64,000 nucleotides of DNA from Limisphaerales bacterium. Its GTDB lineage: Bacteria; Verrucomicrobiota; Verrucomicrobiia; Limisphaerales; AAA164-E04. A program made the translations under genes and the position numbers. The number at the start of each line of letters is the position of its first letter. Position 1 is the first letter of the stretch. The notes under the pieces are model-generated. The model did no database searches and was not told the DNA's origin. It saw only the letters and a list, made by a program, of their open reading frames with translations. Shown in pieces: positions 2,701 through 62,900 of the stretch. The stretch covers positions 3,554,333-3,618,332 of the forward strand of contig OZ242022.1 in NCBI GenBank assembly GCA_965204945.1, given 5' to 3'.

Positions 2701-3483
2701 ATGAACCCCACTTTGCCCAGTTTTTTTGGCGCCGCCCGCGGGATTTGGACGTTGACTTGGCGCGCCAAGTTGGCCCGCAAGCGAATCTTTCTGGTGATTG
2801 GAAGCATGACGGCCCTTCCTTTGCTGTTTGCCTACATCGGCTTCAAAATAGGCTTTCCCGTCGAGGAATTTCACTTCTTTTTGGCGCAACTTTATTTGCC
2901 GCTGGTCGTTCCCCTGTTTTGCCTGAGCAACTTTGGCGCCGTGATCCGAGACGAATTGCAGGAGGACACCATGGCCTTTCTGATCACCCGCCCCGTGAGC
3001 CGCGCCAAACTCTTTCTGCTCAAATACCTCGCTTTGGCGGCTTGGCTGCAAATTATCGTGTTGGGCAACGCCTTGGCCTTTTGGTTTGTGGGCGTCTGGC
3101 TGGGAATTCCCGGCGCCGCATCCCTCATCGCCTTGCTGGCCGCGGTGCAGTTTCTAGCGGTGTTGGCCTTTGGCGCCTTGGCTTCATTGATTGGGTTGAT
3201 TACGCAGAAGTATTTGGTCGCCGGAATTGTCTACGGATTTATCGTCGAATTTGGGATTGGCAAGATTCCAACCAACATCAACGTGCTTTCGATCAGCCGC
3301 CACTTGAAGACTTTTCTGGCGTGGAATGCGGACTTGGCGAGGAATTACGGTTGGAACGCGGAAGGGACTTGGTTTTCTCTGATGATGGTGCTTGTCGGCA
3401 CGGCGCTTTTCTTGCTCATCGGCGCGTTGCTCTTCACCTTCAAAGAATGCCAGCATGCCGAAGAAATGCAAAAAGGTGCCTAG
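2701..3483 (+). CDS. ABC-2-type transporter permease-like membrane protein
   Basis: Hydrophobic multi-pass ORF. The ATG at 2701 lies 15 nt after the upstream stop. The longer ORF from 2626 would overlap the ATPase gene by 60 nt. Confidence 0.65.
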   Translation: MNPTLPSFFGAARGIWTLTWRAKLARKRIFLVIGSMTALPLLFAYIGFKIGFPVEEFHFFLAQLYLPLVVPLFCLSNFGAVIRDELQEDTMAFLITRPVSRAKLFLLKYLALAAWLQIIVLGNALAFWFVGVWLGIPGAASLIALLAAVQFLAVLAFGALASLIGLITQKYLVAGIVYGFIVEFGIGKIPTNINVLSISRHLKTFLAWNADLARNYGWNAEGTWFSLMMVLVGTALFLLIGALLFTFKECQHAEEMQKGA

Positions 3484-3650: not shown

Positions 3651-3809
3651 GCTTTTGCCCGCCAATCCTCTCATCCAATCCACTCGCTATTTGCCCCGGC
3701 GTCGCTTCAAAACTTTCTTTTTCGCAACGAGCAAAGCGAAATTTTTGCGCTTTTTCTCGTTTTCCAAAGAACTTTTCTTAACTTTTTGCATTTTTTTGTG
3801 ACTTTGGGC

Positions 3810-3838
3810 TTGACTTGTTGCGGAGGAGGGATTAGAAA
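3810..3838 (+). promoter_or_regulatory. Sigma70-like promoter candidate for the PEP-CTERM gene
   Basis: TTGACT (3810-3815), 17-nt spacer, TAGAAA (3833-3838), about 33 nt upstream of the ATG at 3871. It shares the GGCTTGACTT context with the promoter at 18747. Confidence 0.35.
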
Positions 3839-3870
3839 TAGAGAAATTTTTAACAGCAAACTAGATTCCT

Positions 3871-4629
3871 ATGAAACGAAAACTATCTTTATTGGCCGCC
3901 ATCGCCTGCATTTGCGGGGGGGGGGGGGGGGGGGGGTACGACGCCCAAGCGCAGCTGATCATTGACGTCTATCCCAGCCAAGACACTCCCACCAACAGCA
4001 TCTGGATTTTCTCTGGCAGCTCCAGCGTTGCAACCCCCGGCACGCTAAGAACTTCCGGCAACTATTCTTCGGCGGATGGTTGGCAAACGGAAAGGGACAT
4101 TTACCAAGCCAACCTCCCTTCCAACCAAACCATCACGCTCTCTCCCCTCTTTTCCAGCACCAACACCATAGACATCGAGTCGGTAAGAAAGCGCATTCCC
4201 GGCGGCGCTAGAACGCAGACTTTTGCCGCCAATGCCACCAACACGCCAACGATTACCATCGGCACCACTCCCGTCAACCGAACCATTGCTTCGATGTTCA
4301 TGAACGATGTGACTGCCGCCGACAACATTGGCATTCGGGTGAGCAGCTCTTTCAACTATGGAAGTTATTCGGGGCAGGCTTCTTCTTGGACGGGATCGGG
4401 TTTGTTAATAAACAAGCCGGTTAGCGATTTTGTTACCGGGAATGTGAACAACTGGACGGGATTGTACCCGGACTTTGCCTCTGGTGGAGTGACTTTGCGC
4501 TTCCACAGCGCCGTCATCCCTGAGCCGGAGGAATACGCGCTTGTCTTTGGTTTGTTTGCGCTAGGTTTTGTTTTCTTTCATCGCCGGCGAATGCAAAAGA
4601 AACAACGCCGCCAAGCCGCCACTTTGTAG
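3871..4629 (+). CDS. PEP-CTERM sorting domain-containing secreted protein
   Basis: N-terminal signal peptide MKRKLSLLAAIACIC...AQAQ. The C-terminus PEPEEYALVFGLFALGFVFFHRRRMQKK has the PEP motif, a TM helix and a basic tail. The body is Ser/Thr/Asn-rich. Confidence 0.8.
   Translation: MKRKLSLLAAIACICGGGGGGGYDAQAQLIIDVYPSQDTPTNSIWIFSGSSSVATPGTLRTSGNYSSADGWQTERDIYQANLPSNQTITLSPLFSSTNTIDIESVRKRIPGGARTQTFAANATNTPTITIGTTPVNRTIASMFMNDVTAADNIGIRVSSSFNYGSYSGQASSWTGSGLLINKPVSDFVTGNVNNWTGLYPDFASGGVTLRFHSAVIPEPEEYALVFGLFALGFVFFHRRRMQKKQRRQAATL
3916..3936 (+). repeat. G21 homopolymer inside the PEP-CTERM coding sequence
   Basis: Counted directly: 21 consecutive G, translated as seven Gly codons within the signal peptide region. 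Confidence 0.95.
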
Positions 4630-4680
4630 CCGGCGGCGGTAGTCCATGATCGGTGGTAAGCCAGCCGCTAGTGAGCAGAA

Positions 4681-4782
4681 TCATCACTGAGCCGGAAGAA
4701 TACGCGCTTGTGTTTGGTTTATTTGCGCTGGGTTTTGTTTTCTTTCATCGCCGCCAAATGCAAAAGAAACGGCAACAAGCCC
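4681..4782 (+). pseudogene. Orphan duplicate of the PEP-CTERM tail-coding segment
   Basis: About 100 nt that nearly repeat 4514-4617, with roughly nine in ten positions identical by eye. It would encode IITEPEEYALVFGLFALGFVFFHRRQMQKK but has no upstream ORF body or start codon. Confidence 0.7.
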
Positions 4783-5261
4783 TAGCCTCGCCAAATCAAA
4801 ACGATATCGAACGAATGGAGACTTGACAAATTCGCGGCAAGCGGGAGAAATGTTTCTTTCGTTGCAAAACTTGGGAAATGGTCGACGAATGACGATATCT
4901 TTTTCACGGTCAGGCTATGGTGCCGTGTTGCGGGAGGTTTGCAATATTTCCACCTGCAAAAAGCGAGCCCGGCTGGGGTTCGAATGCTCAGGTATAAGGG
5001 AGTGCGTTTTTGGTGAATTTCTCGCGCATGCCCTATTGCTTTCATAAGCGTCGGCCGGGCGACGTGCAAACATAGCCTCCCGGACTTTTCCCCGCCTTCT
5101 CGCAAACAAAAAGCCGCAAACCGCCTCAATTCCGTTCAGCGGCGTATCAGACTCCAAACAGCGACGGTTGAAAAGCAACAGCCCAACCGAGCCAACATCC
5201 GCGCCAAAGCGTCTCCAAACATTTTCTGGACATAACTCTTTGCGCAGGGCAAAGTAGGCGC

Positions 5262-13028: not shown

Positions 13029-14306
13029 TTAGAAACAGCGGATGACTTCCGGCTTCCGACCCGGCAGTTTGCAAAAGGCCAAGCCTTCGCTCAATCGGTT
13101 TTCCGAGAATTCTTTTGCCATCACTTTTCGGCCGAAAATGCCCTTGAGCGGCGTCAATCCTCGGTCGGATTGATTGCAGGCGAAGCAGATTGCCGTGCCG
13201 ATTTGCGTCATGTAGTCGTAATCTTGGCCTTCAAAATCTTTCGGATTCTGCGAAAGAAGCGTCACCGCGCAACCTCGCTGGCGGGTTTGCGTAATCATTT
13301 CCTGAAGCGAGTCGCTGCGGTTTTTGTGCAGCACACGATTGGCTTCGTCGATCACTAGCAGATGCCGAAGCGTCCGATGCCCATTGCGAAGAGGCGCATC
13401 GTCTCTACTGAGCCAAAAGGCCGCTTCGGCGTCTAAGAGCAGCTGCATAATGAGATTTCGATAGCTCTGCGGAATGTCCGGCGAAAGGGAAAGCGCCCAA
13501 GATTGCGAGAAGAACTTTTCCGGCGGCATGGACGGCTCAAAGACATGAAAACGCGTGAGTTCGCTCAGCACGCTGGAAACGCTGTCGGGATGGGCGTTTT
13601 CTTCTTCCAGAGCGGCGTCATAAGCGGATTGGATGCCGTCTATACTGCGGTCCGCTTTGGAGCGGGCGACGCTTTCCACACAATTCAAAAGACGGTTTTT
13701 CTGCGTAGTGCTTGCCGAGTGCGCCGGCCGGCACAAAGAATCGCGCAAACGGATGCAAGCGCCTTGCAAGGCGGTGTTGCCTCGGCTCGCTTTGGGAAGA
13801 AAGTCCAGCGGAATGGCTTCGCTGCCGACCACCAGCGTATTCACATCGGCAATTTCATTAAAGGCTTTGTGATACTGACATCCGGGAGCAAAGTCTGGTT
13901 TGGGATCAATGTAAAGCAATGGAGCGCGAGTTTTCTGGAGAATTTGACGGATCAAATGAACGCCGATGCGGGTTTTGCCGGTGCCGGTTTTTCCCATGAG
14001 GACAATGTGCGGCGAGCCGGGTCCGTTGAGCGCAAAGTCCACGAATTCCCCTTCCGGATGCGTCTTGCCAACCGGCCCCAAGCGCAATCGAACCGCGCCA
14101 GAAACCTCCGCGGCGGGAGAATCGATGGTTGCCTCCGTTGCCGAGGATTCCGGCAAAAGGTTGGCGAGGCTCTGCGCCAACTTCGCCACTTCACCCTTCG
14201 CCTTTTCCCAATCATCGAGAATCCACTTGCCGCCGCGCGCCCAATGCGCTTCCACCGCCTTGCGAAAGTCATCCAAGCGGTCGTTGGCGTCATCCAAAGC
14301 GTCCAC
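13029..14306 (-). CDS. HerA/FtsK-like (DUF87-type) P-loop ATPase
   Basis: Walker A LMGKTGTGKT, Walker B LLVIDEANRV, then RQRGCAVTLLSQNPKDF, which resembles the HerA/FtsK RKxG...TQRP block. The listed start is GTG. An ATG at 14331 comes into frame if the A5 run (14321-14325) is one base shorter. Confidence 0.7.
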   Translation of the reverse strand: MDALDDANDRLDDFRKAVEAHWARGGKWILDDWEKAKGEVAKLAQSLANLLPESSATEATIDSPAAEVSGAVRLRLGPVGKTHPEGEFVDFALNGPGSPHIVLMGKTGTGKTRIGVHLIRQILQKTRAPLLYIDPKPDFAPGCQYHKAFNEIADVNTLVVGSEAIPLDFLPKASRGNTALQGACIRLRDSLCRPAHSASTTQKNRLLNCVESVARSKADRSIDGIQSAYDAALEEENAHPDSVSSVLSELTRFHVFEPSMPPEKFFSQSWALSLSPDIPQSYRNLIMQLLLDAEAAFWLSRDDAPLRNGHRTLRHLLVIDEANRVLHKNRSDSLQEMITQTRQRGCAVTLLSQNPKDFEGQDYDYMTQIGTAICFACNQSDRGLTPLKGIFGRKVMAKEFSENRLSEGLAFCKLPGRKPEVIRCF

Positions 14307-14400
14307 CGCGTCGCGGTATCTTTTTGCTCATTGGCGCAAGTTGTCCACGTGTTTGACAACGGATCATAAACTAAATCCTATGGCGAAAGGAAATTCCTTT

Positions 14401-14817
14401 TTACTTGTTATCTAAATAAGTTTTCAGGCGAGCTATCTTGCGCTTGAATGCACGATCATTTTTCATATCATGTTCCCAAAATCTAATAACATTCCAGCCT
14501 TTGCCTTTTAAATGCTTGACAACGGATTTATCACGTTTGACGTTGCGGGAGATTTTGCCTTCCCAATAATTTCGATTCGTTAAAGGCATGCGACAATGTT
14601 TTGGACAACCATGCCAAAAGCATCCATCTATAAATACGGCAATCTTTTGTTTTGTAAACACAAAATCAGGGCGGCCATAAAGCGAATAATTCCGTCGCCA
14701 TCCGGTAACTTTTGCAATGCGAAGAAGTTTGATAAAGGCTAATTCTGTCGAGCCATTGCCTTTTGAAGTAATGCTTCCCATAATTTGTGAACGTTTTTGG
14801 CGAGAGACGGTATCCAT
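14401..14817 (-). CDS. vsr: Very short patch repair endonuclease
   Basis: RSQIMGSI...TELAFIKLL...GRPDFVF...IAVFIDGCFWHGCPKHC...NRNYWEGKI.RN..RD are canonical Vsr motifs. The ATG at 14817 is 2 nt after the upstream stop. Confidence 0.9.
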   Translation of the reverse strand: MDTVSRQKRSQIMGSITSKGNGSTELAFIKLLRIAKVTGWRRNYSLYGRPDFVFTKQKIAVFIDGCFWHGCPKHCRMPLTNRNYWEGKISRNVKRDKSVVKHLKGKGWNVIRFWEHDMKNDRAFKRKIARLKTYLDNK

Positions 14818-14819
14818 GT

Positions 14820-15554
14820 TCACAAAACTTCCACCCAAGAGTCGTCAAATTTCAATACGTCTAAAATTTGATCCTGATCCAGCTGATGGGGTTTCCGAAT
14901 CCGAATGGCCAAGCGATTATCCGCAACGGATTCGATGATTGTAAATTGTGATCCATGAGGTTGCCATGTAAAGACATGTGCGTCATCTTTTCTTGAATGA
15001 CCTTGCAAGTTATTTCGCTTGTTCCACTTCCACCAATATTCACCGCTTGGATAGATGACTGTTTCAAATTCAAACACGGCAAGTTCAAGAAGATCATCTG
15101 ATTTTATGAGCACAACGGTGCGAACGTGTTTGTAGAGTTTTCGGATACCAGCGACTCGTTCGTTCCAAATGGAAAGCACCTTTTCTCCCAATTCATTTGG
15201 ATCGCATTCGCTAACCTTTTGGTCTCCAAACGAATAAACGGGTGAGTTTCTGCCCGATATTAAGCGGATTTTTGAAACCGTTGCCGGGCGTTTATTTTTA
15301 ATGGTTTTGGCGCCCCAAGCAGTTTGTTGTAAGATTATATCATCCAAACCAACATTGGAAGGTTTCCATTTAGCTCCAACAAGTCGAGCAAATATCTCCT
15401 CCCAATCTGACCCCTCCAAGCGAGGCGTACCTCGCGATGCTAAGAAATAAACAATTTCCTTTCCCAATTTGAGAGCAAAATCTTTTGGAAAAGTATTGAG
15501 AGGATAAGGTGGTTGGTATTTCTCAACAGTGCGAAGCTTTGGTCTTTTTTCCAT
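14820..15554 (-). CDS. Type II restriction endonuclease candidate (partner of the m5C methyltransferase)
   Basis: 244-aa AT-rich ORF sandwiched between the C5-MTase and Vsr, overlapping the MTase gene by 32 nt. No specific family recognised; the call rests on context. Confidence 0.55.
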   Translation of the reverse strand: MEKRPKLRTVEKYQPPYPLNTFPKDFALKLGKEIVYFLASRGTPRLEGSDWEEIFARLVGAKWKPSNVGLDDIILQQTAWGAKTIKNKRPATVSKIRLISGRNSPVYSFGDQKVSECDPNELGEKVLSIWNERVAGIRKLYKHVRTVVLIKSDDLLELAVFEFETVIYPSGEYWWKWNKRNNLQGHSRKDDAHVFTWQPHGSQFTIIESVADNRLAIRIRKPHQLDQDQILDVLKFDDSWVEVL

Positions 15555-16578
15555 ATTTGACTTTCTCTTCTAATAGAATCATCCGTTTGTGGACAGATTT
15601 TTCTCTTCTGATGAATTCATTGTACACTCCGTTATGCCAGCTTTGAGCTGTGAACAGTTGAAAGATTACAGATTGCGCAACAGGCACGGGAAGACTGTTT
15701 CCAGCTTGCTTTCTTGTTTGGCTGTCATTGCAAACTATCTGGAACGAATCTGGAAAACCTTGAAGTCGAAGCATTTCTCGCGGAGTAAGACGACGTTCGC
15801 CATTCACAAGAAGGTAGTTATAGGAAGCACCAGCTCTCAAGGCGCAGGAAAAGGGGTATGCGCTAATATGCCCACCTTTATTCTCGTGCCAGATCGTGGG
15901 TTCACAAGTAGGCGGATGTTTGGACAATCGCTTCTTTCTGATGTGATCGGAAACGAAGTACTTTTTTGAAACATCCTTTTCCAAGACAGATTCTAGAGAA
16001 ATCATCTCGACGTTTTCATTTGGCCAAACGAGCATTTCTCCTTTCCGCGTCCCAACGATAAAAATACGTTCTCGTTTCTGAGGCAAACCGAAATCTAGAG
16101 CATTCAAAATTCGACAATCGCAGTTGTAACCCAGTTCACTCAGAGATTCCAAAATGCGATTCAGCGTTTCGCCACTATTGTGGCCTTTCAGCGTTTTGAC
16201 ATTCTCAAGAACAAACGCAGCGGGTTTTTTACTTTTGATAATTCGAGCAATCTCGAAAAACAACGTGCCTCGAGCGTCATCGAATCCTCTTCGATGGCCG
16301 ATGATGCTGAACGGTTGGCAGGGAAATCCGGCAAGAAGCAAGTCGTGATTGGGAATTTTTGAGACGCGAATTTTGGAGATGTCCCCGGCCGGTCGCTCGT
16401 TAAAATTCGCTTCGTACGCCTCTTGGCAACCTTCGTCAATGTCGGATGAAAAGACGCACTTGGCATGAACGCCGAGCAAAGAAGCCGCTTTTTCGGCGGC
16501 AATGCGGAAGCCTCCGATGCCGCAGAACAAATCGACGAATCGAATCTTGGTTTTTCGAACACTGCTTTTCATTTCCAA
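15523..16578 (-). CDS. DNA (cytosine-5)-methyltransferase
   Basis: Motif I FVDLFCGIGGF, motif IV GFPCQPFS, motif VI ENV, motif VIII QKRERIFIVG, motif X GNSLPVPV. Confidence 0.95.
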   Translation of the reverse strand: MEMKSSVRKTKIRFVDLFCGIGGFRIAAEKAASLLGVHAKCVFSSDIDEGCQEAYEANFNERPAGDISKIRVSKIPNHDLLLAGFPCQPFSIIGHRRGFDDARGTLFFEIARIIKSKKPAAFVLENVKTLKGHNSGETLNRILESLSELGYNCDCRILNALDFGLPQKRERIFIVGTRKGEMLVWPNENVEMISLESVLEKDVSKKYFVSDHIRKKRLSKHPPTCEPTIWHENKGGHISAYPFSCALRAGASYNYLLVNGERRLTPREMLRLQGFPDSFQIVCNDSQTRKQAGNSLPVPVAQSVIFQLFTAQSWHNGVYNEFIRREKSVHKRMILLEEKVKYGKKTKASHC

Positions 16579-16629
16579 TGGATTACTTGATGTCTGGTTT
16601 CCGTCTGCACGGTGTTTTAGAAAATCCCG

Positions 16630-17616
16630 CTATTTTGAATCGGACTCTGGCAAAATGTTGCGCGCTACCTCAATCACTTTTAAATCCGAATCGCTTGAAG
16701 TTTGCCCGATAAAACCGGTTGGGACGTTGCCGAAAACAGCTCGAGTCGCCTCCATTAAAACGGCGTCTTTGGTTTGCGTTTGCGCCGCCGCGTTGGAAAA
16801 CGCTTGGAGGGTGCGAATGCTGTTCGCTCGATGATTGTTGATTATGGCGAGATGTTTCAACGCTCTGTAGTTGCGGCCGCACCAGATCGTTCCCGTCAGC
16901 AACACAGCCAAAATAACCATCTTTGTGCCGATTTTCTGGAAGATCTGGCCTTGATCCAATCCAGACTCCGTCCAAAACCACATCCCTAAGGCTACCACCA
17001 CGGTGACGAATGCAGCTCCAATCGTTCCCCTCAACCATATTTTGGCGCTCTTTTCCATTTTGCCGGCAACATTCTCGAAGTCTTTCGTAAAGACAGCAGC
17101 GCCTGCCTTTGCTGATGCTTCGCGAGCTTTGGCGATGATCTCTTCCATCTCGGATGCACCTTTCTTAGCGGCGGTCACTGTCTTCTCGACTTCCTTCGCC
17201 GAACGAGTAATCTTCTCGATGTTCTGATCGATATCGCCGCGTTGGCAAGCCAAATAAGCCGCCCACGGAGCTGATGTCTCAAAAAACGGATTCGTCGATT
17301 GTTGAATGGATCTAACGTGGTAAGATTTGTCCGAATTACCAGAGATCCCAAGACTGAATTGATCGAGATGTTCGAAACTCACAGCCACCTGACGAGTGAG
17401 TGCATTGATGTTGTCAATCGTTTTTTCCAAAAGACGTTCGAGAGGCAAATTAATCAATTGCTGGGCAAGTCTGTAGGTGCGCTCAATGTTCGATTGAATT
17501 TCTTCAAAATGGAACTCTCCCCATTCTCGACGCCTGATGAGTCTCGACTGATCGAGATTGAGAATGCGTTGCAGTTCCTTTTTGAGATTGCTGACTTTTT
17601 CCGATTCGTTAGCCAT
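16630..17616 (-). CDS. Hypothetical 2-TM membrane protein with long helical N-terminal domain
   Basis: 328-aa ORF. The N-terminal ~190 aa is charged and helical (repeats of K/E/A). Two hydrophobic helices follow (GTIGAAFVTVVVALGMWFW and MVILAVLLTGTIWCG), then a ~90-aa C-terminal domain. It is the first gene of the RM gene string. Confidence 0.6.
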   Translation of the reverse strand: MANESEKVSNLKKELQRILNLDQSRLIRRREWGEFHFEEIQSNIERTYRLAQQLINLPLERLLEKTIDNINALTRQVAVSFEHLDQFSLGISGNSDKSYHVRSIQQSTNPFFETSAPWAAYLACQRGDIDQNIEKITRSAKEVEKTVTAAKKGASEMEEIIAKAREASAKAGAAVFTKDFENVAGKMEKSAKIWLRGTIGAAFVTVVVALGMWFWTESGLDQGQIFQKIGTKMVILAVLLTGTIWCGRNYRALKHLAIINNHRANSIRTLQAFSNAAAQTQTKDAVLMEATRAVFGNVPTGFIGQTSSDSDLKVIEVARNILPESDSK

Positions 17617-17813
17617 TGCCGTACCGGTAGATTTGCAAGTTGCCGATTTTGCTTAATTCCAAACGCCGGGGATGTTGCTTGAATTTTTAATTGTTGGCAA
17701 AATCTTTTCTCTGATTTTGTTTGGGATTGTTTTCTGGGTTGGGTTTTTGCACAATTAAAGTTCTTCGTTTTGGTTTTTGAGGATCGGTGATTGGAGACGA
17801 GATTGGTTTGGTT

Positions 17814-18671
17814 ATGGGCAAAGTTTGGAATTTTAAGCAGGAGTTGACGGCGGCGTTTGGGAAGCCGATTGCGGAGAATCCGACGCAGTATATGATGGAG
17901 GCGGCGTTTCGGCATCATGGTTTGGAATGGCGGTATCTTTCTTTGGAGGTGGAGCCGGAGGGCTTGGCGGATGCGGTGAAGGGCGCGCGGGCGATGGGTT
18001 TTCGGGGGTTCAACTGCACGATTCCGCACAAGGTGGCGGTGATTGAGCATTTGGACGGTCTTGGCGAGTCAGCGGAGTTGATGGGCGCGGTGAATTGCGT
18101 GGTTCGGCGCGGAAACGCGCTCATCGGCGAGAATACGGATGGGAAGGGATTTGTGCAGTCGTTGCGAGAGTTGCGGGATCCGGCGGGGGCGGAGGTTGTG
18201 ATTTTTGGAGCCGGGGGCGCGGCGCGGGCAATCAGCGTGGAGTTGGCGTTGGCCGGAGCAAAACGGATTACCCTTGTCAACCGAAGCCGGGAACGCGGAG
18301 AGGCGTTGGCGGCGTTGCTTTCCTCGCGGGTGAAGGCGGAGGCGGAGTTTGTGTTGTGGGAGGGAGATTTTCGAGTGCCGGAGACGGCGGACGTGCTGGT
18401 TAATGCGACGTCAATTGGTTTGTTTCCGGATGTGGATGCCCGCGTGGCTTTGGAGGAGGCGAGTTTGCGTCCGGGTTTGGTTGTGGCCGATGTGATTCCG
18501 AATCCGCCAAGCACTCGTTTGGTGAAAGCGGCGCGGGTGGCTGGATGTCGGGTGATTGACGGGAAGGGGATGCTGGTGAATCAGGGCGTTCTGGGGTTTC
18601 GCTATTGGACCGGCGTGGATGCGGATGCTGAGGTGATGCACCGCGCTTTGGGCGAGGTGTTTGGAGAGTAA
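17814..18671 (+). CDS. aroE: Shikimate dehydrogenase
   Basis: GFNCTIPHK, NTDGKGF and the NADP-binding GAGGAARA motifs. The ATG at 17814 is preferred; the ORF extends to a GTG at 17787. Confidence 0.9.
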   Translation: MGKVWNFKQELTAAFGKPIAENPTQYMMEAAFRHHGLEWRYLSLEVEPEGLADAVKGARAMGFRGFNCTIPHKVAVIEHLDGLGESAELMGAVNCVVRRGNALIGENTDGKGFVQSLRELRDPAGAEVVIFGAGGAARAISVELALAGAKRITLVNRSRERGEALAALLSSRVKAEAEFVLWEGDFRVPETADVLVNATSIGLFPDVDARVALEEASLRPGLVVADVIPNPPSTRLVKAARVAGCRVIDGKGMLVNQGVLGFRYWTGVDADAEVMHRALGEVFGE

Positions 18672-21356: not shown

Positions 21357-23921
21357 ATGCTGAAACTCAAAGCTCTGACACCGATGATGGCGCAATATCG
21401 CCGCATCAAATCCGAATTGCCGAGCGAGTCGTTGTTGCTGTTTCGATTGGGGGATTTTTACGAATTGTTTTTTGAAGACGCGCAGATTGGCTCCGAGATT
21501 CTAGAGGTTGCGCTGACAAAGAGAGGCAAGGTTCCGATGTGCGGCATTCCTTATCACGCGGCCGGCGCTTACTTGGGCAAGCTGCTTCGGGCGGGGAAAA
21601 AAGTGGCCGTCTGCGATCAAGTGGAAGAGGGGCGACCCGGAAAATTGGTCCGGCGCAAGGTGACCCAAATCCTGAGCCCCGGCGCTCATTTTGACGAGTC
21701 GATCTTGCAATCGGCGCAGAACAACTATCTGGCCGCGGTGCAACGCGCCGGCAAAATGGCGGCGGTTGGCGCTGTGGACCTTACAACCGGCGAGTTAGGC
21801 GCGGCAGAAGTGCCAATTGCGTATTTGCCGGCCGAACTGGATCGAATACTGCCCGCGGAGATTATTTTCCCGGAAAACGACACGGATTTATCGCAAAATT
21901 TATCCTCCGGCGCTTGGACTTTGAGCGGCTACGAAGAATGGACCTTTAGTTTGGAAACGGCCGAACACGCTTTGAAGGAACACTTCGGCGTCGCCTCTCT
22001 GGACGGGTTTGGCTTTCGCGGCCGACCCGCCGCCGCCGGAGTTTGCGGCGCCCTCCTTCATTATTTGTCACACCATCTGCGTCGGGATTTGAGCCATCTC
22101 AAAACGCCGGAATGCCGCGAAGGAGGCGATCACCTCGTTTTAGACAAGATGACGCTCAAAAACCTGGAAGTGCTCGAGCCGTTGCATCGAGACGCTCCGC
22201 CTTCGGCCTCGCTCTTTGGCTCTCTAAACGAGACGGTGACGCCTATGGGCGCCCGTTGTTTGCGGCAGTGGATTTCCCAGCCTTTGGCGCGACGCGATTG
22301 GATTCTCCAGCGTCAGGAAGCGGTGGAAACCTGGCGCAAACAGCCTCAACGCTTGGAGCAGCTGCGCCTCTTGTTGAAGGGAATCAAAGACTTGGAACGC
22401 ACGGTCAGCCGCCTGAGCATGGGAAGCGGCAACGCCCGCGATCTTTTGATCATCAAATCCGGCCTAGACAAGATGCCCGGCCTGAAAAAAATCCTGACAG
22501 AATCGGCCAAAAACACCGCCCAATATAGCGACACGCTCCTCTCCATTCCCAACCCGGCGTCGGGCGGCGTCTTGGCCGAATTGAATCAATCCATAAACCC
22601 GCTCCCGGAATTGTTGGAGAAGATCGGCCGCGCAATTCAAGACCAACCGCCGGCAACCATCAAAGAAGGAGGCATGATTCGAGACGGCGTCGACTCGCGT
22701 TTGGACGAATGGAGAAACGCCGGCAGAGAGGGCAAAAACTGGATCGCCGAGCTGCAACGAAACGAAGCCGAACGCACGGGCATCCCCTCCCTCAAAGTGC
22801 GCTTCAATTCCGTGTTCGGTTACTTCATCGAAGTCACCCGAAGCCACCTAAACAAAGTGCCAGAGCGCTACCGCCGCCGTCAAACCATTGCCAATGGCGA
22901 ACGATTCGTCACGCCGGAGTTAAAAAAAGTCGAAGAAAAAATCCTCGGCGCCGAGGAACGGGCTCGAAAACTGGAATACGAGCTGTTTTTGCAGATCCGA
23001 GAAACAGTCATCCAACACCTCAAACCCATCCAAAAAACCGCAGCCGCCATAGCCCAACTCGACGTCTTGGCCAGCTTCAGCGAAACGGCTCGATTGCACG
23101 ACTATTGCCGGCCGGCCATCGGCGAAGAAGGACAACTCTCCATCGTGGAAGGACGCCATCCCGCCCTAGAACGCTCCATAATCGGAGAACTCTTTGTGCC
23201 CAACAACACCGAACTCGGCGGCGAATGCCCACAAATCGCTCTCATCACCGGCCCCAATATGGCGGGAAAAAGCACCTTCGTCCGCCAAGTCGCCCTCCTC
23301 GCCCTGTTGGCGCATACCGGATCCTTCGTGCCGGCAAAAAGCGCCCGAATTGACTTGTTAGACCGAATTTTCACCCGCATCGGCGCCTCCGACGAACTCG
23401 CGCGTGGCCAATCCACCTTCATGGTCGAAATGAGCGAAACGGCCAACATCCTCAACCACGCCACCTCGCAAAGTTTGGTTGTCCTAGACGAAGTAGGACG
23501 CGGCACAAGCACTTTTGACGGACTCAGCCTGGCTTGGTCCATCGTCGAACACCTCCACAACCGCATCGGCGCCAAAACACTCTTTGCCACCCACTACCAC
23601 GAATTGACCGAACTCTCCTCCCGTCTTGAACGCGTCCGCAACTTTCGGGCAGTCGTCAAAGAATGGGGCGATCGCATCCTCTTCGTCCGCAAAATTGTTC
23701 CGGGCGGAGCAGACAAAAGCTACGGAATTCAAGTAGCCCGGCTGGCCGGCATCCCCAAGCCGGTGATCGATCGGGCAAAAAAGATTCTAGCGCGGCTGGA
23801 ACAATCCGACTTGCGAACCGACAGCCCAGCGGACAATCAACGACTTTCCCAAGCGAACCGAAACGCGCTCAAAAACCTAGAAACCCCACCCCAACTCGAC
23901 CTCTTCTCATTGCCAACATAA
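21357..23921 (+). CDS. mutS: DNA mismatch repair protein MutS
   Basis: TPMMAQY...LLLFRLGDFYELF, Walker A GPNMAGKST, Walker B LVVLDEVGRGTST, FATHYHELT. Confidence 0.95.
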   Translation: MLKLKALTPMMAQYRRIKSELPSESLLLFRLGDFYELFFEDAQIGSEILEVALTKRGKVPMCGIPYHAAGAYLGKLLRAGKKVAVCDQVEEGRPGKLVRRKVTQILSPGAHFDESILQSAQNNYLAAVQRAGKMAAVGAVDLTTGELGAAEVPIAYLPAELDRILPAEIIFPENDTDLSQNLSSGAWTLSGYEEWTFSLETAEHALKEHFGVASLDGFGFRGRPAAAGVCGALLHYLSHHLRRDLSHLKTPECREGGDHLVLDKMTLKNLEVLEPLHRDAPPSASLFGSLNETVTPMGARCLRQWISQPLARRDWILQRQEAVETWRKQPQRLEQLRLLLKGIKDLERTVSRLSMGSGNARDLLIIKSGLDKMPGLKKILTESAKNTAQYSDTLLSIPNPASGGVLAELNQSINPLPELLEKIGRAIQDQPPATIKEGGMIRDGVDSRLDEWRNAGREGKNWIAELQRNEAERTGIPSLKVRFNSVFGYFIEVTRSHLNKVPERYRRRQTIANGERFVTPELKKVEEKILGAEERARKLEYELFLQIRETVIQHLKPIQKTAAAIAQLDVLASFSETARLHDYCRPAIGEEGQLSIVEGRHPALERSIIGELFVPNNTELGGECPQIALITGPNMAGKSTFVRQVALLALLAHTGSFVPAKSARIDLLDRIFTRIGASDELARGQSTFMVEMSETANILNHATSQSLVVLDEVGRGTSTFDGLSLAWSIVEHLHNRIGAKTLFATHYHELTELSSRLERVRNFRAVVKEWGDRILFVRKIVPGGADKSYGIQVARLAGIPKPVIDRAKKILARLEQSDLRTDSPADNQRLSQANRNALKNLETPPQLDLFSLPT

Positions 23922-37103: not shown

Positions 37104-37634
37104 ATGCTGAAAACGCCAACCGAAATCGGCTACAACACGAAGATTGAGGGAGACGCCATCGTTACCAGAACGGACGCCGTCCTCAATTGGTTTCGCAAGA
37201 ACTCTCTGTGGCCGATGCCGATGGGCTTGGCTTGTTGCGCCATTGAGCTGATGGCCGCCGTCGCCAGCCGTTTCGACATTGCCCGCTTTGGCTCGGAGGT
37301 CTTGCGATTTTCTCCCCGGCAATCAGATCTGATGATCGTCGCCGGCACGGTCACTTACAAAATGGGGCTGGCCGTCAAACGCATTTACGACCAAATGGCC
37401 GAGCCCAAATGGGTGATTGCGATGGGCGCCTGCGCCTCCACCGGCGGAATGTATCGCAGCTACGCCGTCATGCAGGGCGTGGATCACATTCTGCCCGTGG
37501 ATATTTACATAGCCGGTTGCCCGCCCCGGCCTGAAGCTTTGCTGGACGCCCTCATAAAACTTCAGGCAAAGGTGGGCGGCAGTCCAAACACTCAGGCGCA
37601 AAAAACCGCCGCGGCGCAGCCAACGCGCCCTTGA
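37104..37634 (+). CDS. nuoB: NADH-quinone oxidoreductase subunit B
   Basis: [24 protein letters not shown] and [10 protein letters not shown] are the N2 cluster Cys motifs. Confidence 0.93.
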
Positions 37635-37913: not shown

Positions 37914-38639
37914 ATGAGAACCTATAAGCACCTGATGGCAATCGCTCTGATTGCCCTAGCAACGTGCGCAGGAAGCCAACGAGCCCAAGCGCAAGAGCAG
38001 GAGAACTACGTCTGGATAACCAACACCAACGGAATCACAGAGAAAAGAACCCTCTCCAATTTCAGCACGCACCTAGCGTTCTCGGACAGCAAAAAACCAC
38101 TCATCGCTCAAATCGTCGTGCCAGAACACGCAGCAATCCATTACATCGATGTGTATGGATGCGCCAACCTGACCAACCTCGTCTACAAGCCGTCCAGTCC
38201 CAAAGACTACAGCGGAGGAAACCTCCGAGAACGCACATGGCTCACAATCCTAGCAGACGATAGAACAGGATTGCTCACCATTGCCACCCAACCTCACATG
38301 CAACGGAGAACGCGCATAGAAATGAGAGGAGCAGCCAATATCTACCCTGCATGGCTTCTAAACCTCGAATGGACGACAAACTGGCAAGCAGGAGATCCTC
38401 CAAAGATGGAAATAAGAACCACCACAACCGCCAGAGGAAAGGAAGTGGAAGTCATATGGAGAATAGGCAATCTCCAACTCGCCGATGCCGTCAGCGGAGA
38501 ATGGAAAGACTACAACGGAAGCAGTCCATACAGATTCCCGCTCGCCTCCGCCAAAGACATGCAATTCTTCCGCATCAAACCCGAAGAAGAGGAAGAGCCA
38601 GAGGATAATCAAGGAACACCGACCCAGCCAGAAAAGTAA
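37914..38639 (+). CDS. Secreted hypothetical protein (A-rich, atypical composition)
   Basis: Signal peptide MRTYKHLMAIALIALATCAGSQRAQAQ. The C-terminus ...WKDYNGSSPYRFPLASAKDMQFFRIKPEEEEE. AGA/ACA/GAA-rich codon usage differs from the flanking nuo genes. Confidence 0.6.
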   Translation: MRTYKHLMAIALIALATCAGSQRAQAQEQENYVWITNTNGITEKRTLSNFSTHLAFSDSKKPLIAQIVVPEHAAIHYIDVYGCANLTNLVYKPSSPKDYSGGNLRERTWLTILADDRTGLLTIATQPHMQRRTRIEMRGAANIYPAWLLNLEWTTNWQAGDPPKMEIRTTTTARGKEVEVIWRIGNLQLADAVSGEWKDYNGSSPYRFPLASAKDMQFFRIKPEEEEEPEDNQGTPTQPEK

Positions 38640-38686: not shown

Positions 38687-39250
38687 ATGAAGCAACTAAT
38701 GAGAACAGTAAAGACGATGGCAATCACACTGATTGCCCTCGCAGCAAGCGCCGGAGCGCAGAACGCGCAAGCGCAAGGAGAACTGGAATACGCCGAGAAC
38801 CTGTTCGCCATCGTCTGGTTAGAACGCAATCCAGCAGACAAAACGCCAGAGCATGCCTTCCAACTTCTGCACTGGAACACGACGGCATACAGAAATGAAT
38901 TCGGAGCGACGCCGATACACGCACGAACCGCCAAAGGGTTCAACAGAGACAAAGAGCATGTCGGAACCATCTACAACGGAACCGTCGTGCTGGCAAAAGG
39001 AGAAATAGGAAACGGCAAAGACGAATCCGTCGTGTTCTACCTGCAAATGAATATCCAATTGACAACATTTTACCCAGAGAGAGCATTGAAAGTGGAAGTG
39101 TTCCCCAACAGACGAACCGCCATAATTACGCAGGAAGGCACTGGATTCCGCAGAATGGTCCCAGTGCAACGATACGCAACCAAACACGAAACAAACTCAA
39201 CCTTCGAAAAAGAGCCGAGAACCGCAATTAACTTCGGCCCGCTAAAATGA
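38687..39250 (+). CDS. Secreted hypothetical protein (A-rich, atypical composition)
   Basis: Signal peptide MKQLMRTVKTMAITLIALAASAGAQNAQAQ, paralogous to that of the upstream gene. The ATG at 38687 is preferred over the alternative start at 38645. Confidence 0.55.
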   Translation: MKQLMRTVKTMAITLIALAASAGAQNAQAQGELEYAENLFAIVWLERNPADKTPEHAFQLLHWNTTAYRNEFGATPIHARTAKGFNRDKEHVGTIYNGTVVLAKGEIGNGKDESVVFYLQMNIQLTTFYPERALKVEVFPNRRTAIITQEGTGFRRMVPVQRYATKHETNSTFEKEPRTAINFGPLK

Positions 39251-39398: not shown

Positions 39399-40025
39399 AT
39401 GAGCGAGGCAACGAAAGGTTTTGTTCAAAGGCTAAAGAAGGCTTTCCCGAAGGTTGCGGCCGAGGCAATCGAGTTTCGGGGTGAGTGGACGCTCCCGATT
39501 TTGGACAGCGGCCGGATTGTCGAAGTTTGCCAGTTCGCCAAAACGGAGCTGGGCTTTGACTATTTGGTGGACATCAGCAGCGTGGACAACTATGGAGAAG
39601 ACCCTCGCTTTGAGATTGTCTATGAGCTGTACAGTTATGCGAGCCAATCTCACTTGCGCATTGTCATCCAAGTGTCCGAAGAAAGAGCGGAAGCGCCAAG
39701 TGTGACTTCCGTTTGGCGGGCGGCCAATTGGCACGAGCGGGAGATTTACGACATGATGGGAATCCGTTTCTCCGGACATCCAGACCTAAGGCGCATTCTT
39801 ATGTGGGAAGGATATCCGTATTATCCGCTCCGCAAAGACTTTCCCTTGGCGGGCAAAACAACCGACTTGCCCGATGTTGCCTTTTCCCGCCCGGCGCCCT
39901 TGGAAGGCGGCCCTTTCGTTACGACGGCTGGGAAAGAGCATCGAGCGCAACGGGAGCCAAGAGCCAAAACGGCCGCCGCGCCCGCAGGCTTTTCTGAATC
40001 CGGCAAGGGCGGCTCTTGTGATTGA
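39399..40025 (+). CDS. nuoC: NADH-quinone oxidoreductase subunit C
   Basis: Typical 30-kDa subunit strings: LGFDYLVDISSVD, RFEIVYELYS, WRAANWHEREIYDMMGIRFSGHPDLRRIL. Confidence 0.9.
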   Translation: MSEATKGFVQRLKKAFPKVAAEAIEFRGEWTLPILDSGRIVEVCQFAKTELGFDYLVDISSVDNYGEDPRFEIVYELYSYASQSHLRIVIQVSEERAEAPSVTSVWRAANWHEREIYDMMGIRFSGHPDLRRILMWEGYPYYPLRKDFPLAGKTTDLPDVAFSRPAPLEGGPFVTTAGKEHRAQREPRAKTAAAPAGFSESGKGGSCD

Positions 40026-40062
40026 CGCTTTGCATTAATCTTTCACAACGCGCTTCAGACGA

Positions 40063-41385
40063 ATGGCGGAAGTAAAAAACATAAAAATCAAGGATGCCGC
40101 GGCCACTTGGGAGTCTCTGCACCCGAAGAGTTCTGCGGCGCAGAGCGGAAGGGAAGCGGAGGAAACCCGTCGCAGAGCGGAGACGGAAGACACCGCGACT
40201 CCCGGCGATATCGAGGGAGAAAAGCTCACGTTAAACATGGGGCCTTCTCATCCGTCCACGCACGGCGTTCTGCGCATTGTTCTAGAGTTGGACGGCGAGG
40301 TGATTACTAAGGCGATGCCCGAGGTCGGTTATCTCCATCGCGGCGACGAAAAAATCGCCGAAAGCATGACCTACACTCAATTCATTCCCTACACGGATCG
40401 GTTGGACTACCTGGCGCCTTTGGCGAACAACGTGGCCTATGCGCTTTCGGTGGAAAAACTAATGGGCATCGATCGGGCAACGCCGCCTCGGTGCCAGTAT
40501 ATCCGGGTGATTTGTTGCGAATTGGCGCGCATTTCCGCGCACTTGCTGGGGCTGGGCGCGTTCGCCGTGGACGTCGGCGCTACGACTGTTTTTTTCCACA
40601 CCTTCACGGAACGGGAGAAAATCTACAACCTTATAGAGTCTCTTACCGGAGCCCGCTTCACAACTACTTACACCCGGATCGGCGGACTTGCCCGCGATCT
40701 CCCGGAAGGATGGATCCGAGAATGCGAACGATTTCTGGACGGCGTGTCGGCCAACTTTGACGAGATGGAGAAGTTGCTCACTAGAAATCGGATTTTCGTC
40801 GACCGAACAAAAGACGTCGGCGTATTCCCGTTGGACGTTGCGATTGACTACGGAGTGACGGGACCCAACCTTCGGGCGTCGGGAACCCGGCATGATCTTC
40901 GCAAAGCGCATCCCTATTTGATTTACGATCAATTGGACTTTGACGTTCCCGTCGGCTCCGTCGGCGACTGTTATGATCGCTACTTGGTGCGCATCGAAGA
41001 AATGCGGCAGAGCGTTCGAATCCTCCGCCAGTGCTTCAGGCAACTGCCCGGCGGTCCCGTTTCGATTCCAGACGGGAAAACCGTTTTGCCGCCCAAGGAA
41101 AAAGTGCTTACCAGCATGGAAGAACTCATTCACCAATTCATCTTGGTGACCCAAGGCGTGAACGCGCCGCAAGGCCAGGTTTACTTTGGCGCGGAGAATC
41201 CAAAAGGAGAACTGGGGTTTTACATCAACAGCAGAGGCGGAGGAACGCCGCATCGGCTCAAGATTCGCGCCCCGTCGTTTGTGAATCTGAGCGCATTGCC
41301 GTACCTTCTCAAAGGCGCCATGATGAGCGACACAGTGGCGATTTTGGGTTCGCTGGACTTTGTGATGGGAGAATGCGACCGATGA
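40063..41385 (+). CDS. nuoD: NADH-quinone oxidoreductase subunit D (with ~55-aa charged N-terminal extension)
   Basis: LNMGPSHPSTHGVLR, YLHRGDEK, DRLDY and SLDFVMGECDR. The N-terminal ~55 aa before LTLNMGP are extra relative to typical NuoD. Confidence 0.93.
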   Translation: MAEVKNIKIKDAAATWESLHPKSSAAQSGREAEETRRRAETEDTATPGDIEGEKLTLNMGPSHPSTHGVLRIVLELDGEVITKAMPEVGYLHRGDEKIAESMTYTQFIPYTDRLDYLAPLANNVAYALSVEKLMGIDRATPPRCQYIRVICCELARISAHLLGLGAFAVDVGATTVFFHTFTEREKIYNLIESLTGARFTTTYTRIGGLARDLPEGWIRECERFLDGVSANFDEMEKLLTRNRIFVDRTKDVGVFPLDVAIDYGVTGPNLRASGTRHDLRKAHPYLIYDQLDFDVPVGSVGDCYDRYLVRIEEMRQSVRILRQCFRQLPGGPVSIPDGKTVLPPKEKVLTSMEELIHQFILVTQGVNAPQGQVYFGAENPKGELGFYINSRGGGTPHRLKIRAPSFVNLSALPYLLKGAMMSDTVAILGSLDFVMGECDR

Positions 41386-59930: not shown

Positions 59931-62900
59931 TCAGTTCTCTTGGATGGAGACGTCGTCGATGTAGAAACCGGGAAGAGGGGAAACATCATCCGTTTGGAGG
60001 AGGAATTCAACTTTAATTTTTCCGCCAACGGAAGGGCCGGCCAGCCGAATGGAGCGTTGCGTCCAGCCATTGACGGCGCCGGCTTCGCGGAAGACTTCTT
60101 GGAGGATTTCGTTTGAATCGGCGTCGATGATGTTGACTGATACGCTGTGATAATCTTCCTCGATGTCCACACTGTGAAACTCGACAAAGCTCAAGGTGGC
60201 CACGGATACGCGAGACAAGTCAATTTCAGGGGATCGAAGGTAGGCGTCGGTATTCGCTTCAAAGTCGCCGTCCAAGTCTGTTCCATAGCAGTTGGAGCCG
60301 CTAAATGCGGCGCCGGGGCCGTTTTGCGGAGCGCCCAGTTCCCATTCGTCTTGGTTGCCGCCGTGCGTCCATCCCGGAGCGCCGGATTCAAAGTCATCGA
60401 AAAAGAGAGGCGGGGGAGGAAGGGAAACTACTTGATAGAAGCCGATGCCGTCGGACGGCGGCGAAAGAGTAACTTCAAACAAACCTTCTTCTTCCAAGGC
60501 GGAGGGGACGAGGTCGGCCAAGTCGTTCCACTGGTTTTGGGCGAGCATTGTTTTCATTTGCACCGCGTGACTGCGATTGGCGAAGGGCGTAAAGAAAACT
60601 AGGCGAAGATTGCCGTCTTCCATCGTGATGTCTTGGATGCGCAACGGCGCCAATCCTTCCGAAAGAGGTTTTCCGTTGAGGCCGTTGTGGTAGATGGACA
60701 GAATGTCGTTGGGAGACAAGGCTCTTTGCCAAATGCCCAAGTCGTCCATCAATCCTTGATAGGGGCGATCAACTGACGATGGTTGAACTTGGTAGTTGCC
60801 GAGGACGAGGGGGTTGGAGTTGCCCTCGCCCAGCCTGCCACTTAGAGGGGCGCCGACGGCTTCGCCGTTGTGATACCAATGAATGGCGCCGTTTTTTACT
60901 ATGTAGGCAAAGTGTTGCCAAACTTCGGCGGCCACGGTGTTTGGAGGCGTCGAGTAGGGCGTTTTGCTGACGCCGTGCACGCGGGCAATGCCGCCGTTGA
61001 TTAATACAAAGTCGTAGTTGACGTCTTTGCGGAAGACGCGGTCAAAGTCTGTGCCGCCGCTAAAAAGCACCGGATTCAACCATACGGAAATCGTGGCTTC
61101 GGTGCCGAGCGTCAGCAAGTCGTTGTGAGGAATTTCGATGAAGTCGTCTTCGCCGTCGAAGGAGATCGCCTTGCCGACAATTCCTTCGTCAACCAGCGGA
61201 TTGTCGCCAAAGTTGAAGAGGGTTCCATTGAGTTCGTTGTCGCCAGCGTCGAGGAGATTGTCTCCTTCCACGGAGTCAAAGGAATAGTGCGCCGCCAGCC
61301 CGCTGGCAATGTTGTCCAGTTCCTCCACGGTCAGCGCGGCGGCTTGGCTTACGGTTTGGCCTTGATCGTTGGTGACTTGGACGGAGTAAAGGCCGGCGTC
61401 TTTGGGAAGGAGGCGAATCAAAGTCAAACGGTTTTCCGTCGCTCCTTCAATTGGCTCGCCGTCTTTGAGCCATTGATAGCGCACGGGGCGTTTGCCAGTG
61501 GCCACGATTTGGAAAACGGCGCTGGCGCCTTCGAGCTTTTTCTGGGAAAGGGGTTGCACTTCGACAACCGGCGGGCCGGAAACGTCCTTCCCTGCGGCTT
61601 CGAGAATCTCGGACTCTCGAAGGGGACGCGCCCAAATGGACAGCTCATCCAAAACGCCGTTCAAATAGCGGGCAACGGAATCCACTTCGGCGTCATAGCC
61701 GCCGATTGTGAGGACTTCGGAACCAACTTCGCCAAGCCCGCCTTCGGCCGCTTCGCCGATTGGGAAACCGTTTTTGTAGAAGAAAACAAAGCCGCCTTTG
61801 TAGACGATGGTGAAGTGTTGCCATACGTCGAGCTCGACCGATCCTTGCGGCAGGTTGGCTTCCCATCCCTTGCGCGCCACGGTGCCGGGATCTGCCCCGT
61901 TTCCCCGCCGAACCACAATGGTTCGGGTGACGGTTCCGGGGTCGTTGATGACGCGAATGCCGAAGTGATTGCCTTTGCGCAGCACATAGCCGGCGCTGCG
62001 GTTGTAGGTGCCCGCGCTTTCCTCTTCGCCGTAAGTGTTCAGGCGAATCCAGAACGAAAAAGTGGCCTCCGTTCCAAGTTCGCTCAGCGCGGGATTATCG
62101 TCGACGGCAACGACGCTTTCCAGACCGTCAAAGGCAAGGCCGTTGTTGACTTGCCCCGAAGTCCAAGCGTCATCATCGGGGAATCCCAGCAATACGCCGT
62201 TGAGGTCGTTGCCCGAACCGTCAGCCGCGCTCTCGCCGGAAGTTTCGTCAAAAGCCCAATAGCCCGCGCGGCCGGTGTCCAAGTCTTCAACGGGGGTGAC
62301 GGAAAGAACGGCCGCGTTGCTGATGGTTTCGCCGTGATCGTTTTGAACGCGCACGGTGTATTCTCCGGCGTCGGCTTGGGAAACGTCGGGAATGACCAGC
62401 GCGGGCTCGGTTGCCGCGCGAAGGGGTTCTCCGTCTTTGTGCCAAAGATAGCGCAAGACGCCGACGCCGTCTGCGGTGACGCTGAGCATTGCCGTGCCGC
62501 CTTCATAAAGCGTTTGGTTTTGCGGTTGCGAAGCGATTTCCGGCACAGTGGCTTGCGGCGGCAGTTCAAAATCGCCATCGAACACGGCGCGGATTTCCGC
62601 TGAGGAAAGAGGTCGTTTCCAGATCAGAACTTGATCCATCAAGCCGTTGAAGAAGCTGTTTCCATCATCGGAGCCGATGCGCAGAGGCAGTTGGCTGTCG
62701 TCAATCGGGCCGGGAACGTCAACGGAACCTTTGAGTTCGCCGTCAATGTAGGTTTTGGCCGTTGCGCCGTCAAAGACGCCGGCGATGTGATACCAAACGT
62801 CGGCCTCAAGCGAATCTCCAATGCCGGCGGTAAAGTTAGAGCCTCCGTGCTTGACTAGAAAGTTCATGCCGCCGGGGCGGACGCCTTGTAGAAAAAAGTA

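Follow-up and report, generated by a model that had tools for sequence, protein, structure and literature searches.

We found that an uninterrupted run of 21 guanines (G21) near the start of a gene for a PEP-CTERM-type secreted protein is likely to be a slipped-strand (simple-sequence-repeat) switch of translation that gates one member of an exported protein family. The gene lies in a 64,000-nucleotide (nt) stretch, which we call the window, of contig OZ242022.1 from the Limisphaerales assembly GCA_965204945.1 (positions 3,554,333 to 3,618,332, forward strand); coordinates given below without a locus name are those of the window. This reading, phase variation, is supported by comparison of the sequence with related loci, and such a mechanism would probably switch each of at least a dozen related surface proteins randomly between on and off states. 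The two features that it centers on are the following.

3871..4629, plus strand: PEP-CTERM-type gene with a secreted product of 252 amino acids (aa), from the list of open reading frames (ORFs)
3916..3936, plus strand: G21 homopolymer, the proposed slipped-strand switch, from the sequence and at the same position as the tracts of the family

The tract is flanked by TGC on its 5′ side and TAC on its 3′ side and makes up codons 16 to 22 of 252, the ORF reading MKRKLSLLAAIACIC-GGGGGGG-YDAQAQ-LIIDVYPSQ... Thus, the original prediction, made from these letters alone, was right in placing seven in-frame GGG glycine codons within the signal peptide. Nothing comparable was found elsewhere in the window, where the longest other runs are six G and seven C, Tandem Repeats Finder (TRF) gave no other notable simple repeat, and chance would be expected to give 2e-8 runs of at least 21 G. 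The tract has the makeup of a contingency locus, being a pure repeat with a unit that is not a multiple of three, inside the ORF and near its 5′ end. When its length was varied in silico from 17 to 25 G, the full protein was obtained at 18, 21, and 24 only, and all other lengths gave peptides of 27 to 32 aa. A changed repeat number that shifts the frame therefore abolishes the product, and the truncation by slippage that had been predicted was reproduced.

The same tract recurs across the family. A protein search returned 256 homologues, and most family members carry a pure G tract in the context TGC-Gn-TAC, which is present in about 80 paralogs or orthologues from several independent assemblies. 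It had n values of 18, 15, 20, 24, and 14 in five paralogs on OZ241891, and we found G11, G17, G19, and G16 on other contigs; the loci with a tract of G11 to G24 at this position are L001 to L005, L007, L009, L010, and L013. In every copy examined at the DNA level the tract was pure G and at the identical codon position, with measured lengths of 11 to 24 and inferred lengths of up to 27. An alignment of eight 5′ regions kept the tract in register, preceded by a conserved T-rich/TTGACT/A-rich promoter-like stretch and then the start codon. The best 120 of the 256 homologues fell into five classes by their annotated N termini.

About 30 proteins: in frame, with MK.K, a hydrophobic stretch, C(I/L)C, Gly2-7, and ...AQAQ
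26 proteins: out of frame in the first alternative frame, reading ...LRGGGG
4 proteins: out of frame in the second alternative frame, reading ...FAGGGG
21 proteins: start called just after the tract, reading MIIDVYPSQ...
About 33 proteins: a different signal peptide (...LEQSQAQ) without a Gly run

The ...LRGGGG and ...FAGGGG forms are the signal-peptide DNA translated in its other two frames, and the window itself has an alternative-frame ORF (3786..3965) of the ...LRGGGG form. A cluster member, P0121, widened the in-frame range to Gly9. Two of the 21 proteins with a start after the tract were checked as DNA and had G19 and G16, both out of frame. Homologues annotated as long, upstream-extended ORFs (...KLDSYETKTIFIGRHRLHLRGGGG...) were rejected as products, as they consist of promoter or 5′ untranslated region plus signal-peptide DNA in another frame. 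At locus L007 (8046-8075), an orthologue from another species of the locus represented by L001 and L009, the tract is only G11, and a compensating insertion of 1 nt shortly after it (TACCAAAGCC for TACGACGCC) keeps the gene in frame, giving ...GGGGTKAQAQ.

The out-of-frame copies might also be pseudogenes heading for loss, with the tract a nonadaptive mutational hotspot in a decaying family. Many copies are indeed off, including nearly all of the tract-bearing copies listed from the 4.31-Mb genome, and a few are truncated (P0034 and P0051) or have frameshifted tails (P0134 and P0135). Yet the mature domain and the sorting tail with its PEP motif were complete in 53 of the 53 off-type proteins examined, which argues for reversible silencing rather than decay. 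In addition, the tracts are uninterrupted in nearly all copies, with few interrupted ones (e.g., P0031 and P0132), the promoter-like region is conserved, and four types of repeat, described below, arose at the same end of the gene. We therefore consider decay unlikely.

Tract length also varied where the surrounding DNA was conserved. Loci L002 (OZ241891) and L013 (ERZ26167651 contig_26) are orthologous to the locus of the window gene, with which they share ATP-binding cassette (ABC) transporter genes upstream, AhpC/TSA and SIMPL genes downstream, and flanks that are 88 to 92% identical. The tract at these two loci is G15 and G16, respectively, compared to G21 in the window, a difference in which assembly error is not separable from biology. 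The original prediction had proposed a contingency locus and suggested comparing tract lengths in relatives, and the comparison supported it: lengths ranged from 11 to 24, both frame states were common, and the off copies were intact.

Among identical alleles from different assemblies, the tract differed in three of four pairs (18/17, 21/19, and 15/16). L009 and L001 match over 3375 bp with 0 mismatches and a single gap, which is G17 versus G18 and hence off versus on; L010, with G19, and P0016, with Gly7 (G21), encode identical mature proteins; and L013 and L002 match over 5715 bp with 0 mismatches, differing in G16 versus G15 and in one unrelated A3/A2 indel. Because this unrelated indel shows the ordinary noise of assembly, the tract differences fit phase variation without proving it. 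The exact length of 21 in the window is uncertain for the same kind of reason, as assemblies of identical alleles elsewhere disagree by 1 to 2 G, and whether the window copy is in frame depends on a homopolymer length for which assemblies are not reliable. In two pairs of near-identical copies, P0135 with P0136 and P0015 with P0134, there was also a frameshift in the region encoding the PEP-CTERM tail (...GFVISSESCGMRLAVVKR versus ...GFVSFHRRRMQKK...), which is due either to misassembly or to a second site of variation at the 3′ end.

Taken further, this doubt would make the poly-G, or its length, a product of the sequencing platform, through two-color Illumina chemistry or long-read miscalling. 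On every platform, the length of a homopolymer is the call to be trusted least, and both the 1- to 2-G differences between identical alleles and the baseline noise seen in the A2/A3 indel are in keeping with it. Two-color artifacts occur at read and contig ends, whereas this tract is internal to a 64-kb contig, within a coherent ORF, and syntenic with the tract of the orthologous locus. Moreover, about 80 copies from several independent assemblies share its codon position, and these assemblies include metagenomic ones of the scaffold type, with G11 and C11. For these reasons, the existence of the tract is not attributable to the two-color poly-G that the original prediction had named as a possible refutation, and the doubt is limited to its exact length; we judge it very unlikely that the tract is an artifact of sequencing or assembly.

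The codons of the tract indicate what is being conserved. GGG accounts for only 11.6% of the Gly codons in 26 long ORFs of the window, and were the peptide all that mattered, seven consecutive GGG codons would have a probability of about 3e-7. All of the remaining runs of three or more Gly in the window ORFs use mixed GGC/GGA codons. These data favor reading the Gly run as a property of the DNA, an expansion and not a peptide requirement, as had been predicted by comparison with two other genes of the window (starting at 37914 and 38687). That comparison held only in part, since the leaders of the two genes do end in ...CAGSQRAQAQ and ...SAGAQNAQAQ, but the genes encode unrelated small secreted proteins outside the family; the codon usage and the family members that lack a Gly run serve the purpose better.

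The peptide-level explanation would be a flexible polyglycine spacer selected for export or processing, with its length drifting neutrally in frame. Signal peptides often have Gly and other small residues close to where they are cleaved, and the in-frame copies tolerate anything from Gly2 to Gly9. It is hard to reconcile a spacer with the pure G of all tracts measured as DNA, with at least 30 copies being out of frame, or with the members whose signal peptide is of another kind and lacks a Gly run, some of which bear poly-C or 7- or 8-nt repeats encoding quite different peptides. We consider it extremely unlikely.

Repeats of other kinds are found near the start codons of these members, whose signal peptide is the alternative one (...LEQSQAQ). 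Locus L012 has a C11 run (about 3010-3020) directly after the start codon (following ATGAAAGTA), and other members read MK..PPPPPPPP.. at this place. Locus L011 has a perfect octamer repeat, (GGCAAGCG)x7.4, at 188-246 (TRF score, 118), and locus L006 has a TCGGGCA heptamer repeat at about 2420-2445. That four repeat types share only the capacity to shift the reading frame is the strongest family-level argument for contingency behavior, because a peptide function or a nucleic acid structure is then hard to invoke. A C12 tract (coding strand) was also seen at L004 4837-4848, in the leader (MNSSINQSISPPPRSS|...) of a minus-strand gene (3995..4876) for an unrelated exported protein, with a prepilin-type N-terminal methylation domain (PF07963, DUF1559-like), which hints that leader-peptide homopolymers may be a general strategy in this lineage.

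A structural or transcriptional role, in which a G-quadruplex in DNA or mRNA, or slippage of RNA polymerase that returns some of the transcripts to frame, tunes the level of expression instead of switching it on and off, bears on the same observation. G runs can form intramolecular G-quadruplexes and long homopolymers can cause transcriptional slippage, so G21 could in principle do either. Folding of the RNA of 3835-3990 gave a stability not above that of shuffled sequences (z = 0.73) in a model without G-quadruplexes, tracts as short as G11 occur, and the C tracts and 7- or 8-nt repeats at the same place have only frame-shifting in common with G21. Such a role seems quite improbable as the primary explanation, although it could coexist with DNA-level switching and make the off state leaky.

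Several observations weigh against a slipped-strand switch. The tract differences were seen between loci and assemblies and not within one population, and an on fraction of about one-third is also what random noise in length calling would produce. One identical-allele pair, P0015 and P0134, shares Gly5 and thus the same tract length. The A3/A2 discrepancy (L013 3865/L002 3442) is a 1-nt difference outside long repeats, i.e., baseline indel error, and some of the alternative assemblies look long-read, so that differences of 1 to 2 G could be consensus errors. No exosortase was found among the approximately 26 window ORFs scanned. Finally, the window encodes a full-length MutS with all five domains (21357-23921), and mismatch repair may damp slippage.

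The other features of the gene are as follows.

3810..3839, plus strand: putative sigma-70-type promoter, TTGACT (3810-3815), a 17-nt spacer, and TAGAAA(T), from conservation only
3871..3951, plus strand: signal-peptide coding region, with n-region MKRK, h-region LSLLAAIACIC, Gly7, and c-region YDAQA
3952..4515, plus strand: mature domain, Q28 to about V215, a predicted beta-sandwich
4516..4626, plus strand: PEP-CTERM-type sorting tail, with IPEP, a hydrophobic helix, and RRR/KK, from a motif scan

In the alignment of the eight family 5′ regions, the TTGAC and the A-rich −10-like box of the putative promoter were invariant or nearly so, and there is a T-rich stretch on its upstream side; a simple consensus promoter scan of the window did not flag the TTGACT...TAGAAA region. 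The basic n-region, hydrophobic core, and AQA|Q site identify a Sec signal peptide by inspection. Cleavage after A27, likewise placed by inspection and not by a predictor, fits the −3/−1 rule, and both A27 and Q28 are invariant across the aligned family. The tract lies after the hydrophobic core and ahead of the cleavage region. A lipoprotein was considered and rejected, since the conserved Cys just before the tract is preceded by I, L, or F (C-I-C, C-L-C, or Y-L-C) and not by G, A, or S; the lipobox [LVI][ASTVI][GAS]-C is absent, and the Cys upstream is not conserved in the family.

The mature domain belongs to no Pfam or NCBIfam family, the single Pfam match at an E value of ≤1 being a spurious transmembrane one. 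An AlphaFold model (predicted local distance difference test score [pLDDT], 76.5) has a beta-sandwich and a C-terminal helix and gave no significant match against the PDB. The C terminus, IPEPEEYALVFGLFALGFVFFHRRR, has the PEP-CTERM architecture of a PEP motif followed by a hydrophobic helix and a basic cluster. When searched in isolation, it scored 15.2 bits (E = 0.03) against TIGR02595, for which the cutoff is 16, and matched NF033554 (floc_PepA) weakly (E = 1.4e-4). The protein resembles PEP-CTERM/exosortase cargo (TIGR02595; the Zoogloea floc protein PepA, NF033554) in its N-terminal signal peptide and C-terminal PEP motif, helix, and basic cluster, but its tail falls just under the TIGR02595 cutoff and has about 10 extra residues past the basic cluster, and its mature domain matches no named subfamily.

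Traces of recombination were found in and around the gene. The gene body is 79.5% identical between the orthologous loci, below the identity of the flanks. Over residues 69-228 the window protein has 100% identity to paralog P0002, and over residues 29-68 and the tail it has 95% identity to paralog P0003; it thus reads as a mosaic of these two paralogs, which come from the 4.31-Mb genome. A further feature lies downstream.

4674..4781 (core; 4653-4826 overall), plus strand: orphan second PEP-CTERM tail (ITEPEEYALVFGLFALGFVFFHRRQMQKKRQQALASPN...), from tblastn, with 84% identity to the tail of the gene itself

The orphan tail lies 45 bp past the stop codon, and homology of the flank to L002 and L013 restarts exactly at 4674, at what is in those loci the tail of the intact gene, ending in ...RQALASPN. 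Because the orthologous flank homology resumes exactly at the orphan tail, the most economical interpretation is that a paralog cassette, from promoter to stop codon (about 3707-4632), took the place of the ancestral gene, of which the tail remained.

The family to which the gene belongs is narrow and uncharacterized, and its members are in Limisphaerales metagenome-assembled genomes (MAGs). Three complete chromosomes (4.23, 4.31, and 4.52 Mb) hold many of the homologues, and two of these chromosomes, OZ241891 (4.23 Mb) and OZ251460 (4.52 Mb), were identified in a genome scan as Limisphaerales MAGs; the remaining homologues are on ENA metagenome contigs. There are at least 13 to 20 paralogs per genome. 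Among 1.84 billion cluster representatives, no more than 150 match at an E value of ≤1e-3, a scan of genome contigs returned 6 loci, and a scan of JGI metagenomes gave essentially nothing, with one weak match to the tail. Searches for exact proteins in an index of gene positions, in which these genomes are apparently absent, gave no entry for the window gene, its neighbors, P0002, or P0003.

We propose the following mechanism for the switch. Slippage during replication would change the tract by one G in either direction, reversibly and at high frequency, and with each paralog flipping independently, a population would hold a combinatorial mix of surface-protein repertoires. Gains and losses of whole Gly residues would be harmless, because the leader is removed at AQA|Q. 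The mature protein would be exported by Sec, processed by an exosortase at its PEP-CTERM tail, and displayed on the surface or in the matrix, and recombination between paralogs would add mosaicism to the sequences. Plausible selective agents are evasion of phages, evasion of grazers, and bet-hedging between aggregated and free-living or planktonic states; the weak likeness of the tail to the floc protein PepA may be noted beside the last of these.

Extended to the whole family, the proposal would give free-living Limisphaerales an Opa-like "phasome" of exosortase cargo, in which scattered paralogs with convergently acquired leader repeats (poly-G, poly-C, 7-mer, and 8-mer) and cassette-like reshuffling generate combinatorial surface variation in an environmental bacterium. 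We see the chances of this broader reading as evenly balanced; under it, phages, grazers, or an aggregated/planktonic bet-hedge would likely be the pressures.

The closest analogue is Neisseria opa, a multicopy, recombining family with a CTCTT repeat within the signal-peptide coding region, according to the summary given in 10.1101/2020.09.16.300947. The two systems have in common a frame-shifting repeat in the signal-peptide coding region, many copies scattered in the genome, a frame state for each copy, and mosaics formed by recombination. They differ in the repeat, a G homopolymer here and a pentamer there, and in the protein, as Opa is an outer-membrane beta-barrel and the product here is a predicted beta-sandwich with a PEP-CTERM tail. 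Furthermore, Neisseria is a human pathogen, whereas the organisms here are Limisphaerales that are known from metagenome assemblies alone and have no known host, and switching here is read from sequences only. We found no Pfam match that would indicate homology to Opa, and the model is that of a soluble beta-sandwich.

In Gardnerella, the sialidase gene nanH3 has a poly-C tract by the signal peptide, and out-of-frame copies have been annotated as "proteins without a signal peptide" (10.1101/2020.09.16.300947). A homopolymer adjoining the signal-peptide coding region, a surface-tethered protein, and the "signal-peptide-less" annotation are common to both cases. Unlike the family described here, in which the tract is inside the signal peptide, nanH3 is a single gene with a C8-14 tract just after it, and its length heterogeneity comes from the sequencing of clones and not from assemblies. 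As neither Opa nor NanH3 is homologous to our protein, the likeness to opa and nanH3 is one of mechanism only.

Campylobacter jejuni and Helicobacter switch surface-structure genes through slippage in poly-G/C tracts within ORFs. These tracts are typically 8 to 13 bases long, and MutS/MutL-type repair is said to be missing from the organisms. The tracts of the present family are longer (11-27), and the window has its full-length MutS, a complete repair protein that may explain the greater length relative to the repair-deficient Campylobacter or Helicobacter. The targets also differ, being mostly glycan-modifying enzymes there and a paralogous protein family here.

Within the same phylum, Verrucomicrobiota, the genome of Akkermansia muciniphila has 17 genes with homopolymers of >8 bp, enriched at gene starts and proposed to be phase variable, as well as 21 PEP-CTERM proteins (PMC3048395). 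In contrast to the tracts described here, the repeats highlighted there are short (G8 and C10), are in capsule genes, and are not tied to PEP-CTERM proteins or to a gene family. In the searchable literature, we found no link of PEP-CTERM proteins to repeat-driven switching and no such switching in Limisphaerales.

To our knowledge, nearly all that is understood of repeat-driven phase variation comes from work on host-adapted pathogens and commensals. Contingency loci based on simple sequence repeats are themselves well known; what would be notable here are the lineage, how large the gated family is, the convergence of repeat types, and the PEP-CTERM cargo. If the reading is true, an opa-style combination of leader repeat and recombination extends over a whole paralogous surface family of an uncultured, environmental verrucomicrobial lineage, and the strategy is applied to PEP-CTERM/exosortase cargo, the biology of which is poorly known. 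It would also imply strong fluctuating selection on the cell surface outside hosts, by phages, protists, or attachment, and provide a concrete set of loci in which on/off dynamics could be followed in metagenomic time series. Dozens of "signal-peptide-less" or N-terminally odd MAG proteins would then be frame artifacts of the switch, which is a warning to annotators.

Some other parts of the window deserve mention. The two small signal-peptide genes used in the original comparison (37914-38639 and 38687-39250) had no family match and sit between genes for the putative NADH dehydrogenase subunit B (37104-37634) and subunits C and D (39399-41385), an unusual insertion in a nuo-type operon; the subunits were identified by reading the sequences. 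The region of 14000-18000 has a G+C fraction of 0.45 to 0.48, compared to 0.53 overall, and encodes a C-5 cytosine DNA methyltransferase (15523-16572); it may be a restriction-modification or mobile island. On the minus strand, 59931-63293 encodes a protein of 1,120 aa with three Laminin_G_3 (concanavalin-like) domains and immunoglobulin (Ig) domains, which probably acts at the surface or in adhesion and lacks a repeat tract.

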